A stretch of 61,572 nucleotides of DNA, filler included, from Candidatus Nezhaarchaeota archaeon WYZ-LMO8 (lineage in GTDB: Archaea > Thermoproteota > Methanomethylicia > Nezhaarchaeales > WYZ-LMO8): the NCBI GenBank assembly GCA_004347965.1. It is 16 parts of 16 records of this genome, joined end to end, with 100 filler letters (N's around TTAATTAATTAA, not from the genome) between each part and the next. Parts side by side here need not be neighbours in the genome. Positions count along the whole stretch, not along the records: positions 51,467 to 54,906 come from QNVF01000074.1; 15 more parts are not named here. The stretch is one strand, 5' to 3'. How positions within the stretch are numbered: the stretch's first letter is position 1; every line of letters begins with the position of its first letter. Shown piece by piece: positions 10,426-52,541 of the stretch. Under the pieces are notes generated by a model. That model had not been told where the DNA came from and did not search any database. It saw only the letters and a program-made list of their open reading frames with translations. The translations under genes were made by a program, and so were the position numbers.

Positions 10426-11472
10426 TTACAAGAAGTACTTCTTCATTTCAATTGCGTAGTCTTCAGGAGACTCGACTACTTCACTTTCATGGAGTAGTGT
10501 TGCTAATGCCCAGAAATCGCTTAGAAATGGCTTATTTAAGCCGAATCTAGCGCATATCCTTATTTGTGGATGGAAGGAGCAATGCGCGTCCTTAAAGGGT
10601 GGAAGGAGCAATGCGAGGTTTATGCATATGATTCCTCTGTCTTCATAAAACTCTAAGATTTTAGAAAGACCATGAGCTAATTCTCTTATATGGTCAGGCC
10701 CTATGCTTGATGGTGTAAGAGGTTCTTTGAATAGCCCCCATACTTCGAGGAACCTTAGTGGAGCGAAGGGGGCTAACCACACCCAATATTTTCCCTCAGC
10801 TATGAAACGTTCTCCAACTTTCTTCTCGTAGCTAATGAGGTCAATCCAGTAGTTCCTTGATGTCTGCACGTAGTACTCATAACTTCTTGAGAGGAGGAGA
10901 CGTTGATAGTTGAAGGGGGTGTTTGAAGCTAGTGCTTGCATGTGTGGGTGAATGATGCTTGATCCTGCAGACGGTAAGTAGTTCATAATTATTGTACCAT
11001 AAGATAGTTCCAGGTTGGCTTTGTAAGCTGCTCTCAATGCTTCAAACCCAGCTCGAAAGCCTTCTGCTAGTGTGTTAGCTCCTAGCTCCTTGGGGTAGGC
11101 AAGGTGCTTATAGCCTAGCACTATTACAGCGTTAAAGTCCGCGTGCGCATGAAGACTTGGAAATGCTATACAACTACCGATCTTAATTCTTCCCTCTGGA
11201 ACTACGTTTTCTGGAAACTTAGAAGTTAAGGACTCTATTCTTTCAGGGCAGAAGGGACAGGTTGGTTTAGTTACTTCGGCAAGCTCTTCAAGAAGATGCT
11301 TGTCTGTTTTAAAGTATTTCTCAATGTATTGAAGTCTCCCCCTAGCTATGATGGTTGAGAGTCCAGTTAAGGGATCAAACCTTCGCTCAAGTACTTGCTC
11401 TTCCAACTCAAATTTGCGCATAGGATTAAGCAAGTAAGCTTTCCTAATCTCTCTTCGAAGCTTTAGCTCCAT
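10426..11472 (-). CDS. Galactose-1-phosphate uridylyltransferase-like (GalT/HIT) protein
   Basis: RFDPLTG, CPFCP and AGSSIIHPHMQ motifs. Confidence 0.85.
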   Translation of the reverse strand: MELKLRREIRKAYLLNPMRKFELEEQVLERRFDPLTGLSTIIARGRLQYIEKYFKTDKHLLEELAEVTKPTCPFCPERIESLTSKFPENVVPEGRIKIGSCIAFPSLHAHADFNAVIVLGYKHLAYPKELGANTLAEGFRAGFEALRAAYKANLELSYGTIIMNYLPSAGSSIIHPHMQALASNTPFNYQRLLLSRSYEYYVQTSRNYWIDLISYEKKVGERFIAEGKYWVWLAPFAPLRFLEVWGLFKEPLTPSSIGPDHIRELAHGLSKILEFYEDRGIICINLALLLPPFKDAHCSFHPQIRICARFGLNKPFLSDFWALATLLHESEVVESPEDYAIEMKKYFL

Positions 11473-11646
11473 GAGGGGCCCAAAATAGATTCTAGAACTT
11501 TAGAGCCTTATATGCAGTATTATTACCATTAAAGAGGCTCAACCATTCTGTTAGAGAATTTGTTAACATATACGCGGACAATACCATTTGCAAGCTCAAC
11601 TTCCCGACTACGTAATGAAGAGGAAGGTGGGCAAAGAAGATTGAAG

Positions 11647-29851: not shown

Positions 29852-31027
29852 TTACCTCCTCGATCCAAATATGTGTACTACACAGGTCCCACCAGAACCT
29901 CCCACATTGTGGGTTAGCCCTATTTCAGCTCCTGGTACTTGTCTGCTACGTTCTTTGGCTTCGTTTCTTAATTGCTTAAATATTTCATAGACTTGAGCTG
30001 TTCCCGTAGCACCTATTGGATGACCCTTTGCTTTCAGCCCTCCACTAACGTTTACTGGAATTTTTCCGCCAATGTAGGTTTGACCTTCCTCTATTAGCTT
30101 TCCTCCTTCTCCTTTCCTACAGAATCCGAGGTCCTCGTAAGCTAAAATTTCAGCTATTGTAAAGCAATCATGGACCTCAGCTAAATCCACATCTACCGGT
30201 TCAATTCCAGCCATTCGGTAGGCGCTCCTGCTAGCCTCTACAGTAGCTCTCAAGGTTGTTATGTCCTCACGCTCGTACACTGCTATGTAGTCTGTTGCAG
30301 CTCCAAGACCTAGAACATAGACCGGCGAGTCTGTGTACCTCCTTGCTATATTGCTTCTACATACGATTACAGCCGTAGCTCCATCGCTTGTTGGACAACA
30401 ATCGTATAGCCTAAGAGGTCCAGCAACCATGGGCGACTTTAAGGCCGTCTCCACATCTATTCTTCTCCTAAACTGCGCTTTGGGATTATCAGCTCCATAG
30501 TAATGATTCTTCACAGCTACCATAGCTAAGTGCTCAGGTTTCGTTCCATACTGCTCCATGTGTCTAGTAGCTATTAGAGCGTACATGCCTGGAAAGGTTG
30601 TACCGGCAAGTCTCTCCCAAAGAGTATCACCTGATACTCCAAGCCAGTACCTGCCTCTTAGCCCTGCAACATCCCTCATCTTTTCGACCCCACCCACTAG
30701 AACCACATCGTAAAGTCCAGAAGCTACGCTCATGATGCCGAGCATGAAGGCAAAGCCTGATGATGCGCAGGCATTTTCAACACGTACTGCTGGTATGGGA
30801 ACTATGTTGAGGTCACCAGTTATAGCGCATGAGAGGTTACCAAGTTGAGAGCCTCCTGACCCTAGAGTGCCTATGAAAACTGCTTTAATTGCCTTGGGAT
30901 CAATACCTTTATCTACGCTCTCTATTGCCTCCCAAAATGCTTCTGCAAAGAGTTGCGGATACGTCTTCTCAGGGTATTCTCCAAAAGCTGTGTGTCCAGC
31001 TCCTATGACTGCCACTTCCCCCTTCAT
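29852..31027 (-). CDS. Archaeal thiolase (acetyl-CoA acetyltransferase)
   Basis: ENACASS, AEVHDCF, SGGLKAKGHPIGATG and HNVGG motifs. Confidence 0.93.
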   Translation of the reverse strand: MKGEVAVIGAGHTAFGEYPEKTYPQLFAEAFWEAIESVDKGIDPKAIKAVFIGTLGSGGSQLGNLSCAITGDLNIVPIPAVRVENACASSGFAFMLGIMSVASGLYDVVLVGGVEKMRDVAGLRGRYWLGVSGDTLWERLAGTTFPGMYALIATRHMEQYGTKPEHLAMVAVKNHYYGADNPKAQFRRRIDVETALKSPMVAGPLRLYDCCPTSDGATAVIVCRSNIARRYTDSPVYVLGLGAATDYIAVYEREDITTLRATVEASRSAYRMAGIEPVDVDLAEVHDCFTIAEILAYEDLGFCRKGEGGKLIEEGQTYIGGKIPVNVSGGLKAKGHPIGATGTAQVYEIFKQLRNEAKERSRQVPGAEIGLTHNVGGSGGTCVVHIFGSRR

Positions 31028-46017: not shown

Positions 46018-46761
46018 TCACATTATCGAAACCACTATTGGGACGATGATAAGCCTAACAGCCGACACAAACACTCCTCCCGAGTCACTTGGGTAGTATT
46101 CGACTTGGTTACCAACCTTTACGCAAACCTTCACTTGCACGCTATCGAACGTTCTCGTCTCTATTTGTGGAACACCGCTTTGCACTCTAACTGTTACTGT
46201 TCCAGTACCTCCCGTGGTTCCACGATCTAAGCTTATGATGTATATGTCCATTACTTTGAGGTTCTCGTTCATGGTTATGCGCACTCTGTTGTAATCCAGT
46301 ACCACCCATACTCCATTTTCAGTCTCTACTCGAACGTACCCTAATGGTTTTGAAGCATCAGTGACTATCAGCCCAACGGGTTGTGTAAGGTTTACTTCTG
46401 CAGCTGAAACCATTCTTCCTCCACGATACTTAATTACCCACGAACTTATCGTTCTACTCAGATTTAAGCTTGAATCGGAGTATATCATTATGTTGATGGC
46501 TTCTCCCTCATACAAACCAATTCCACCACTCCTCTGGTTAAATGGGATTGAGCTTGCTGCACCAGGTCTAAGAGCTACGTCAGCTATGGTCTTGTCCAGT
46601 ATCCTCATTGCAGTCTTAGCCTGCTCAAACTCTGAGTTTTGCACTTGAATTTCCAGCATGTCTGTTGAGAAGTAGAAGGCTATGAATAGTATCACTAACA
46701 AGGTCGTTGTTATTATCACGGTCGATATGACTGTCGATAAGCCCCTCTCCGTAGCCTCCAT
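46018..46761 (-). CDS. Archaeal type IV pilin-like protein
   Basis: MEATERG|LSTVISTVII class III signal peptide. Confidence 0.7.
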   Translation of the reverse strand: MEATERGLSTVISTVIITTTLLVILFIAFYFSTDMLEIQVQNSEFEQAKTAMRILDKTIADVALRPGAASSIPFNQRSGGIGLYEGEAINIMIYSDSSLNLSRTISSWVIKYRGGRMVSAAEVNLTQPVGLIVTDASKPLGYVRVETENGVWVVLDYNRVRITMNENLKVMDIYIISLDRGTTGGTGTVTVRVQSGVPQIETRTFDSVQVKVCVKVGNQVEYYPSDSGGVFVSAVRLIIVPIVVSIM

Positions 46762-46783
46762 GTCCTTCACTCATTAAGAAAGT

Positions 46784-47803
46784 TTAACCGAATGACAAGA
46801 AGAAACCGAATAGTTGCATGAAGATTATTGAGAGCATGGCTATTAGTGTAAGCATTATTGCATGGCTGAAGCCAGCTGAAATGTTTCCAGAACTAATCTT
46901 CCCCGTCACTATCCCCATCAAGTATGATTGAAAGACCAGAGCAGGTAGAATTACTATCAGTATCTGAGTGAATGGTATTGCTGTGCGAGCTATGGTTGAA
47001 ACGGCTGAGCGCATGAAGCTTATCGTCACTAGGGTCGAGAAGATCATTAACGCAGAGCCTATGTAAGGCATTATCATTAATGGTCGGAGAGAAGCTCTCT
47101 TCTCCTTCTCTAGAGAAGCTTGCATTTCACCGAACCTCGCCATAGTCTCAAGTGTCTCAGGGCTACCTCCACCTATCTCTATCGCGTCAACTAGTAGGTA
47201 GATGTTCATTAGAGAGAACCAAGAGCTTATCTTCTTCTTTAAGGTTTCGTAGACGACTCTTACCGGTTGACCCCATCTTAGCTGTCTTGCAACCACTCTC
47301 AGGTACTTGCTGAAGGATCCGTAAGGTCTCGATGATAGCTGTATTATGCATGCCTCTGGTGAAGCTCCAGTCTTCCTCGTCTCAGTCATGTCTCTAAGAA
47401 AGTTTGCTACCTCCCTAACTATCTTTCTTCCTCTCCTACGCTCATAATAGCTGTGAGTTATAGCTGCTGGGACCGTTCCAGCTATCAAGGCTATCCCCAT
47501 GCCTATAGAAGGTTCAACTCCATGCTCTAGACCCAGCATCAATCTAAGAGACGTTAAGAAGGACACGAATTGGCTTAGTGGGGGTATGGAAGCAAGTTCT
47601 GGTATGAGGTACGGAAGGAACATGGTGAAGACTAAGAACATCATTATTGGTAGTGAGGCCATGTATACCTTATATGGCGCCGTCTCATAGATTGGCTCTT
47701 GGAAGCTGGATAGGTCTGATAGGTACATGAAGAGTACTGAGATTACTGGTACGAGGATGTAGGAGTATAGTAGAAAGTTCTCTGCTGTGAAGCCTCCCTG
47801 CCA
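46784..47803 (-). CDS. TadC/FlaJ-type type IV pilus membrane platform protein (5' truncated)
   Basis: FLRDMTETRKTG, YGSFS, GGSPETLE and GKISSG motifs; frame open to the contig edge. Confidence 0.85.
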   Translation of the reverse strand, partial: WQGGFTAENFLLYSYILVPVISVLFMYLSDLSSFQEPIYETAPYKVYMASLPIMMFLVFTMFLPYLIPELASIPPLSQFVSFLTSLRLMLGLEHGVEPSIGMGIALIAGTVPAAITHSYYERRRGRKIVREVANFLRDMTETRKTGASPEACIIQLSSRPYGSFSKYLRVVARQLRWGQPVRVVYETLKKKISSWFSLMNIYLLVDAIEIGGGSPETLETMARFGEMQASLEKEKRASLRPLMIMPYIGSALMIFSTLVTISFMRSAVSTIARTAIPFTQILIVILPALVFQSYLMGIVTGKISSGNISAGFSHAIMLTLIAMLSIIFMQLFGFFLSFG

Positions 47804-51466: not shown

Positions 51467-52071
51467 GTGAAGGAGGGTAAAATAACAAGCATAGATGAGA
51501 TATTCGCCAACAACCTAGTCATAAAGGAGCCGGAGATAGTAGATGCTCTACTACCAGATTTGAAGCATGAGGTAATCGATGTCGGCATAGTTCAAAAGCA
51601 GACAGACACCGCCTAGCGCCTGCTGGGCGGCTGTAAGCTGGCGAGACATCAAGGTTTAAAGTAGTTGTAGCTGTAGGCAACGAGTCTGGTTATGTCGGAC
51701 TAGGAGCAGCTAAAGCTAAGCAAATGAGGGAAGCAATAGACAAAGCGATAGTTGAGGCCAAGCTAAACATAATTCCCATAAGGCTGGGCTGTGGAAGCTG
51801 GGAGTGTAGGTGTGGTAGACCTCATAGTGTGCCAATAAAGACTTGGGGTAAAGCTGGAAGTGTAGAGATAACGTTGATTCCAGCTCCTAGAGGAACAGGT
51901 CTCGCTGCTGGTGATACGGCTAAAATAGTCTTGAGACTAGCTGGGGTTAAAGACGTGTGGACATTCAGCAAGGGCGAAACGCGATCCAAGGAGAATATGG
52001 CTAGAGCCACGCTTGAAGCTCTTAGAAACACGTTAAGCTTCAAGTTTACGAAGGACTGGATGAGAGCATGA
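51467..52071 (+). CDS. rps5: 30S ribosomal protein uS5, join(51467..51607,51637..52071), 5' truncated, intron-containing
   Basis: Exon 1 [13 protein letters not shown]...VGIVQKQTD; exon 2 [15 protein letters not shown]...GCGSWEC...PAPRGTGL; the frames join only after removing 29 nt. Confidence 0.93.
51608..51636 (+). other. Putative bulge-helix-bulge (tRNA-type) intron in uS5 mRNA
   Basis: CAG/CUG outer helix, ACAG/CUGU central 4-bp helix, 3-nt bulges AC^A and AA^G, 9-bp inner stem CCGCCUAGC/GCUGGGCGG with a GCCU loop. Confidence 0.88.
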
Positions 52072-52541
52072 CAAAGAAGCTGTATGCGGTCATAAGGCTT
52101 CGAGGTCGTGTTGGTCTTCCTCCAGACGTAAAGTTCACGCTTCGCTTACTAAACCTTACGAGGAGAAATCACTGCACGATAGTTGAAGCAACGCCATCAA
52201 TTGAAGGAATGCTGAAGAAGATCTCGGGCTACGTAACATATGGGGAGGTGAGTGAAGAAGTACTAGCAGCTTTATTGGAGAGGAGGGGTCGATTGAGGGG
52301 TGATGAGCACCTCACAATTGATCACATCAAGAAGCTGGGGTTTGAGAGCTTTAAGGACTTGGCTAAAGCAATACTTGAAGGCAAAGTAAGTTTACGTAAC
52401 ATACCTAACTTGAAGCCGGTCTTTAGGCTGCATCCACCTTCTGGGGGATTTAAGGGAGCAATAAAGAAGCCCTTTGAGCAAAGAGGAGAACTCGGTTATA
52501 GAGGTTCAGCAATAAACGAGCTTTTATTGAGAATGATTTAG
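52068..52541 (+). CDS. rpl30: 50S ribosomal protein uL30
   Basis: [23 protein letters not shown] and GELGYRG motifs; ATGA overlap with rps5. Confidence 0.95.

Follow-up and report, generated by a model that had tools for sequence, protein, structure and literature searches.

How can a ribosomal protein be made from a gene whose reading frame is broken by a short insert that carries a stop codon? The question is raised by the uS5 (rps5) gene of Candidatus Nezhaarchaeota archaeon WYZ-LMO8 (assembly GCA_004347965.1), in which 29 nucleotides (nt) at positions 51608 to 51636 separate two parts of the coding sequence. We consider it highly likely that these 29 nt are an archaeal protein-spliced intron of the bulge-helix-bulge (BHB) kind, lying within the coding sequence of a single uS5 gene, and the frames on either side suggest that the cell very probably has to splice its uS5 mRNA. 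The window that we analyzed is a stretch of 61,572 nt made of 16 contigs of ~3.1 to 4.7 kb, arranged by descending size and joined by linkers of 44 N, TTAATTAATTAA, and 44 N. Because the window is a chain of separate contigs, genes on either side of a linker are not genomic neighbors.

The uS5 insert and its bulge-helix-bulge motif

The contig at 51467 to 54906 begins inside uS5, and the 5' end of the gene is lost at the contig edge, which precedes the insert by 141 nt. There is one copy of uS5 in the window, divided as follows.

51467 to 51607, plus strand: uS5 (rps5) exon 1, partial, with a translation ending in ..VQKQTD; the sole uS5 exon 1 in the window
51608 to 51636, plus strand: putative intron of 29 nt, with an in-frame TAG at 51614 to 51616 when read unspliced
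51637 to 52071, plus strand: uS5 exon 2, with a translation beginning AGETSRF.. in another frame than exon 1 and a stop codon at 52069 to 52071

Past 51607, the frame of exon 1 continues with ACC GCC TAG and stops at 51614 to 51616. Exon 2 matches the Pfam family Ribosomal_S5 from profile position 17 of 65 onward (positions 17 to 65; 1.8e-17), as well as Ribosomal_S5_C (1.1e-22), and its earliest in-frame start codon is at 51724, 29 codons in. A first-pass annotation, made from this DNA by itself, had reported the frame break, a BHB fold around it, and the exact segment that splicing would remove. When both frames were translated again, every coordinate of the frame break was re-derived and proved correct.

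Passages of a review (PMC6379350) define the archaeal motif by two 3-nt bulges with a 4-bp helix between them, located at the exon-intron borders. The uS5 insert and its flanks have exactly this arrangement, with two 3-nt bulges on opposite strands and a Watson-Crick helix of 4 bp between them. The elements of the fold are listed below in 5' to 3' order.

51599 to 51601, plus strand: outer helix h, 5' strand CAG (coding), pairing with 51638 to 51640
51602 to 51605, plus strand: central 4-bp helix H, 5' strand ACAG (coding), pairing with 51631 to 51634
51606 to 51608, plus strand: 5' bulge ACA, with the predicted cut between 51607 and 51608
51609 to 51630, plus strand: inner hairpin h', a 9-bp stem (51609 to 51617 with 51622 to 51630) closed by the loop GCCU (51618 to 51621)
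51631 to 51634, plus strand: central helix H, 3' strand CUGU (intronic), pairing with 51602 to 51605
51635 to 51637, plus strand: 3' bulge AAG, with the predicted cut between 51636 and 51637
51638 to 51640, plus strand: outer helix h, 3' strand CUG (coding), pairing with 51599 to 51601

All pairs of the outer helix (C51599-G51640, A51600-U51639, and G51601-C51638) and of the central helix (A51602-U51634, C51603-G51633, A51604-U51632, and G51605-C51631) are Watson-Crick pairs, and the 9-bp inner stem includes one G-U pair. On the 5' side the order of elements is h-H-bulge-h', and on the 3' side it is h'-H-bulge-h; this is the strict form of the motif, hBHBh'. Both flanking helices of that form are present: h' has 9 bp here (6 to 10 bp in relatives), and h is weak, with 3 bp. 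The 16 pairs and the two bulges all lie where the first-pass annotation had put them, as do the 9-bp stem and its GCCU loop.

EndA, the archaeal splicing endonuclease, cleaves each bulge behind its second base. Removal of 51608 to 51636 joins QKQTD and AGETSRF in frame, and the resulting junction equals that of intronless homologues, which read QKQTDAGE, QTQTDAGE, or QKMTDAGR without a gap. The excision that had been predicted by the EndA rule, restoring QKQTDAGE, is thus the one that the homologues call for. As a control, we applied a scanner with the same topology and cut rule to a tRNA gene of a relative (G001). It recovered an intron of 21 nt; once this is excised, the anticodon loop has 7 nt, with U33 and A37, which makes the intron a canonical 37/38 one. 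Because the same geometry and cut rule yield this proper tRNA intron, the uS5 motif is of the canonical kind.

In its loose form the motif is common, with 335 matches when both strands of the window are counted. Among these, the uS5 insert alone combines a stem h' of at least 8 bp with a loop of at most 8 nt. On the 1.02-Mb contig of G001, that bar is reached with an all-Watson-Crick central helix by 4 of 6393 matches, one of which is the uS5 insert of G001 itself. The folding energy of the window insert is modest (z = -2.37), and 5 of 200 shuffled sequences fold equally well. That the insert is not a chance match is settled by comparative evidence, namely, inserts at the same site in relatives and covariation of their stems.

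Same-site inserts, covariation, and history in relatives

We examined 160 related loci from species genomes and metagenomes; tblastn recovered the 47 residues of exon 1 in 157 of them, and 157 have both exons. The exons adjoin in 149 of these, are separated by an insert of 28 to 31 nt at the exact boundary in 7, and are arranged oddly in 1. We then took the class to which G001, a metagenome-assembled genome (MAG) labeled Nezhaarchaeota, belongs and surveyed its 61 species genomes. A covariance model built from 8 sequences had exactly one match in each of 13 of these genomes. A search with the intact protein found the same 13 genomes interrupted, 47 with a continuous junction (46 full-length genes and, in G027, a partial one), and 1 without a uS5 match, so that the insert is missing at the same codon boundary in 47 of the 60 class genomes with uS5. 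This search found no second copy of uS5 in any of the 13 intron-bearing genomes.

Diverged versions of the insert thus occupy the same codon boundary in 13 species-level genomes, and five metagenome contigs have them as well. They are 22, 28, 29, 30, 31, or 34 nt long, and every one carries stop codons, two or three in the case of those of 30 nt, which are in frame. The first codons of exon 2 (AGE.SRFK) are conserved across relatives, with synonymous differences. The genome closest to the window is G057, at 96.5% identity over exon 2. The closest database proteins (69 to 88% identity) are without exception truncated gene calls that start immediately past the insert (P0003 to P0006, P0008, P0012, P0021, and P0036; 111 to 141 residues versus ~210), and more distant uS5 proteins in the database are full length. 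One protein, P0007, is an intact uS5 of 207 residues that reads QKQTDAGELSRF across the site and is 90% identical to G050 over exon 2; it comes either from an intronless relative or from a spliced transcript.

Covariation was assessed mainly in 16 distinct sequences over the 16 base pairs of the motif. Paired bases occupy 98.0% of cells, compared with 12 to 41% when the partners are slid, and 8 of the 16 pairs have changed on both sides, which none of 500 shuffles matched. The central helix is paired in every cell (64 of 64) and in all 16 sequences, the outer helix in 45 of 48 cells, and the inner stem in 98.6% of cells, with compensatory changes in 7 of its 9 pairs. Both bulges are invariant in pattern, the 5' bulge being AYA and the 3' bulge ANG in 16 of 16 sequences. 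The third pair of the central helix is A-U in two sequences (the window and G057) and G-C in the other 14; the third base of the Thr codon, which is ACA in the window and G057 and ACG in the others, shifts together with its intron partner (U versus C), and a synonymous site in the exon is thereby tied to an intron base. The first-pass annotation had looked to rps5 of relatives for presence or absence of the insert and for compensatory stem changes, and the 13 of 61 genomes with the insert provide both.

A tree of exon 2 was built from 141 columns. Its 65 rows comprised class genomes (46 without and 13 with the intron, leaving out G027 and G015), the window, and 5 outgroups. All 14 intron-bearing rows fall within one group of 15, which has weak support (80/82) and consists of a well-supported clade of 10 rows and a clade of 5. 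The sole intronless member, G053, sits in the clade of 5 and reads straight through the site as ..CAAACAGAT|GCTGGG... This pattern fits a history of one gain followed by one precise loss, or of two gains, which is as far as so short a tree goes. From the sequences, the intron looks to have been inherited from a common ancestor of the Nezhaarchaeota-like genomes and one sister group labeled Methanomethylicia, and at least one member of the group, G053, judging by its sequence, has either lost it or never acquired it.

Proposed splicing of the uS5 transcript and alternative readings

We propose that the last nine bases of exon 1, the intron, and the first four bases of exon 2 would fold in the pre-mRNA into the strict hBHBh' motif, and that the tRNA-splicing endonuclease EndA would then cut between 51607 and 51608 and between 51636 and 51637. 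The exons would be joined by the RNA ligase RtcB, restoring ..QKQTD-AGETSRF.. in one frame; in an unspliced mRNA, translation would end after two codons of the insert. We infer cleavage, ligation, and translation of the spliced mRNA from the motif, its fit to the frame, its covariation across the clade, and the enzymes of relatives. These enzymes, and the copy number of uS5, were checked in relatives and in the window. EndA (PF01974) is encoded by 7 of the 7 intron-bearing genomes examined, and 4 of the 7 have two EndA genes, as expected of the crenarchaeal type with two subunits. RtcB (PF01139) is encoded by 6 of the 7.

The insert is a feature of the DNA in several data sets. Sixteen listed sequencing runs from 8 studies contain the stretch or part of it, and DNA contigs of three of these (X1, X3, and X7, from three studies and differing years) hold the full 1934 nt, insert included, with 0 differences, although these contigs may be the source data of the assembly. 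The first-pass annotation had asked for reads; the insert is seen here in contigs. Independent assemblies of relatives carry their own versions of the insert.

The one RNA run examined, X13, gave only short assembled contigs. One exact short contig halts at 51605. An odd contig (depth 17.9) joins 51607 back to 51467 via 39 nt of upstream uS5 codons; the join reaches approximately codon 4 of the open reading frame (ORF), and the 39 nt encode missing N-terminal codons of uS5. This is the pattern of a circular or tandem RNA of 180 nt, one end of which coincides exactly with the predicted 5' cut at 51607. No alternative BHB that would be cut near codon 4 was found by hand. A joint of 240 versus 269 letters, found in X1, X3, X7, and X13, was considered as the spliced form and rejected, since it belongs to the uS5 gene of another organism and is less than 90% alike in between.

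That second organism is similarly abundant in the same samples. Its uS5 gene has no insert and is 29 nt shorter over 51490 to 51760 (240 versus 269), and its insert-free transcript is present in X13.

Several observations weigh against a spliced BHB intron. The minimum-energy fold has a 2-by-2 internal loop and a shifted outer helix instead of the 3-nt 3' bulge. The outer helix has only 3 bp, with a mismatch in 3 of 16 sequences, and an alternative outer register without a clean 3-nt 3' bulge, the one favored by the minimum-energy fold, is paired in 42 of 48 cells, compared with 45 of 48; covariation does not choose between the two registers. The 16-sequence alignment was fitted to the model structure, a bias in favor of that structure; an independent MAFFT alignment of 8 sequences is 97.7% paired, with compensatory changes in 5 of 16 pairs. 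In X13, no contig of the window strain spans 51606 to 51786, and neither a joint of 51607 to 51637 nor an intron circle is listed among its contigs, which cannot show absence. Finally, RtcB was not found in the 1.0-Mb assembly of G001, which is probably incomplete, and neither EndA nor RtcB is encoded in the 61-kb window, so that the enzymes are known from relatives only.

If the insert were retained in the mRNA, uS5 would be made as two polypeptides, one of ~70 residues ending in ..QTDTA and a C-terminal piece, or as the C-terminal piece alone. The database gene calls of the closest relatives, which all begin just past the insert at 111 to 141 residues, look like such a protein, and the spliced junction was not seen in the X13 contigs. 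However, the window offers no start codon until 51724, and yet the exon-2 codons that precede it are conserved with synonymous changes; the N-terminal Pfam domain of S5 would be broken internally, at profile position 16/17. A split or truncated protein would also leave the bulges, the 4-bp helix, and the covarying stems unaccounted for, while the insert varies in length from 22 to 34 nt. We regard this reading as very improbable.

We give the same small chance to translational recoding, in which the ribosome would hop over the hairpin and the RNA would stay uncut. The model for this is gene 60 of phage T4, where a stop codon follows the take-off point and the bypassed segment contains a stable hairpin; the uS5 insert, with a stop two codons past the would-be take-off and a stable hairpin, resembles it in both respects. 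The codon before the gap is GAC or GAT and has no matching landing codon, the last intron triplet being UAA, UAG, or UAC. It is the geometry read by EndA that is conserved (3-nt bulges exactly 4 bp apart and a covarying exon-intron pair), not a landing site, and the same geometry occurs in hypD, cbf5, and tRNA genes of the lineage. A pseudogene killed by a small palindromic insertion, or an error of assembly or sequencing, might be suspected in a fragmented assembly of short contigs, the gene being cut by a contig edge 141 nt before the insert, but it is hardly credible given an identical insert in contigs from three runs, studies, and years, diverged same-site versions in 13 species-level genomes and five metagenome contigs, and a single-copy uS5 in 13 of 13 genomes with protein-level conservation on both sides.

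Returning to the BHB intron, we offer a doubtful speculation about what it might do. The N-terminal domain of uS5 has a double-stranded-RNA-binding fold. EndA also matures rRNA and tRNA. Instead of being merely tolerated, the introns of uS5, cbf5, and hypD could form a posttranscriptional checkpoint in which free EndA and RtcB capacity sets the amount of translatable uS5 mRNA, tying the supply of ribosomal proteins to rRNA processing; uS5 might even attach to the BHB helix in its pre-mRNA and so regulate splicing by feedback, and the back-joined RNA of X13 might be cleaved exon 1 circularized in vivo. We think this scheme unlikely as it stands.

Other introns of the lineage and comparison with known systems

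Two further protein-coding genes of the lineage contain introns of this type, and the suspicion that mRNA introns are more widespread here, raised by the first-pass annotation, holds up. In hypD, which encodes a hydrogenase maturation factor, a strict hBHBh' intron of 20 to 28 nt is found in 12 of the 53 class genomes with hypD; it splits the Thr codon of the conserved ..MHVCG-T-HE.. motif, and its stems covary. The carriers other than G001 are G005, G009, G013, G014, G054 to G059, and G061 (loci L298 to L308). The two introns are distributed differently: the hypD intron is present in G005, G009, G013, and G014, all without the uS5 intron, and absent from G002 and G050 to G052, all with it. 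The second gene is cbf5, which is split in 3 of the 4 genomes examined (G001, G002, and G057), at the known GTL|DP site of the catalytic Asp. The G001 copies are as follows.

G001:C1:997666-997687 (locus L237:17666-17687), plus strand: hypD intron, strict hBHBh'
G001:C1, approximately 479600 to 479660 (locus L182/L186), minus strand: cbf5 insert of 22 nt, relaxed BHB with H and h' and no outer helix

Passages of an earlier study (PMC2738675) give Desulfurococcales and Sulfolobales as the hosts of the cbf5 pre-mRNA intron, and the split cbf5 genes seen here fall outside that range.

A scan of the G001 genome (1.02 Mb) produced 6393 strict matches; 777 were left by a loose coding filter, and 32 by a filter for compact hairpins. 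Only at uS5 and hypD were both flanks convincing as coding sequence. Two further candidates (L228 and L211) were rejected because Pfam was empty on either flank, and the remaining ones were judged by eye to be adjacent genes or off-frame. A strict scan of this kind undercounts, since the relaxed cbf5 intron escaped it. In the window, four minus-strand matches (46751 to 46871, 30587 to 30641, 11433 to 11535, and 11501 to 11534) passed the open-frame filter and were set aside, their flanks being off-frame junk or two separate genes, and a compact match at 47466 to 47487 was dropped because its frame is open without splicing.

ARAGORN found no tRNA genes in the window. On G001:C1, nine of its tRNA calls are odd, with lengths of 87 to 99 nt or anticodons given as SeC, Stop, or four bases (388398-388495, 420054-420142, 473685-473771, 478706-478801, 511267-511365, 604225-604317, 878613-878711, 923867-923958, and 1000653-1000741). 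ARAGORN was run without intron handling, which accounts for the odd calls, and the nine are probably intron-containing tRNAs. One of them, reported as Trp(CCA), is in fact a Gly(UCC) tRNA that has a 37/38 intron.

The gene next to uS5 on its contig encodes another ribosomal protein.

52068 to 52541, plus strand: uL30 gene, from the ORF list (Pfam Ribosomal_L30, 8.7e-16), overlapping the uS5 stop codon by 4 nt

The two genes are probably cotranscribed. Downstream of uL30 are genes for an ArsR-type regulator (on the opposite strand), an Hsp20 protein, and a CDC48-type ATPase. In related loci that extend 5' of uS5 (L001:2760-2830 and L081 to L084:2740-2830), ~150 nt of noncoding DNA precede the start codon and contain a conserved A/T-rich box (..AAAG.TTAAAATAA..), followed ~10 nt on by GTGTAGGTT; the box and GTGTAGGTT look like a dedicated promoter for uS5-uL30.

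If the uS5 intron is spliced as proposed, it would be the first of its kind among ribosomal protein genes, with a strict motif, strong covariation, and a traceable history of gain and loss, and hypD would be a second new case within the same class. The ribosome would then have an essential single-copy component that relies on the machinery processing tRNA and rRNA, and ribosome production might be coupled to that processing, as the first-pass annotation suggested. There is also a practical side. Ribosomal protein uS5 commonly serves as a marker gene in assessing the completeness of genomes and in phylogenomics; gene callers truncate it in this clade, and completeness estimates and phylogenies may consequently be distorted. 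A direct RNA test of uS5 splicing looks to be within reach, given that the literature describes a culture highly enriched in Methanonezhaarchaeia, together with its metatranscriptomes (PMC12700198); the word "intron" occurs 0 times in that cultivation paper. Full-text literature searches turned up no publication in which archaeal uS5/rps5 or hypD is said to contain an intron.

Among known systems, the intron of cbf5 is the nearest. The first-pass annotation had held it to be the only well-established archaeal mRNA intron, which needs correcting: passages of a 2023 review (PMC10485636) count two archaeal mRNAs as spliced by the tRNA-splicing enzyme, cbf5 and HVO_1309 of Haloferax, and expect more. 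According to passages of Yokobori 2009 (PMC2738675), introns were predicted in other protein-coding genes, with splicing confirmed for cbf5 alone; the same passages describe the cbf5 intron as cut by the splicing endonuclease and as patchily gained and lost. Like it, the uS5 intron lies inside an ORF, carries a stop codon, and is absent from related orthologues at the same codon. Unlike it, the uS5 intron interrupts a ribosomal protein gene rather than that of an RNA-modifying enzyme, is not at a catalytic Asp codon, and is hosted by the class of a MAG labeled Nezhaarchaeota; because the host gene is uS5, it is an intron of the same kind but not the same intron. The uS5 motif is strict, whereas that of cbf5 is relaxed in the accounts excerpted from PMC10485636 and PMC2738675, and splicing of cbf5 has been demonstrated experimentally, whereas that of uS5 is predicted from sequence.

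The HVO_1309 transcript of Haloferax volcanii is likewise an mRNA substrate of archaeal EndA, and its spliced form is reported as the main product in part of the same review (PMC10485636; original paper, PMC7714728); it differs in being euryarchaeal, with a homodimeric enzyme and an unrelated gene. The tRNA 37/38 intron, as characterized in passages of Hirata 2019 (PMC6379350), has the identical motif, cut positions, and size range. In uS5, the host is instead an mRNA, the 5' strands of h and H are Gln-Thr-Asp codons, and that stretch must be spliced before it is translated, so as to re-establish a reading frame. The eukaryotic mRNAs HAC1 and XBP1, as outlined in portions of PMC13149111 and PMC8718801, also lose a short intron without a spliceosome, with a change of frame, by means of IRE1 and, in animals, ligation by RtcB. 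There, the endonuclease IRE1 reads two stem-loops and not a BHB motif, and splicing is a regulated stress switch.

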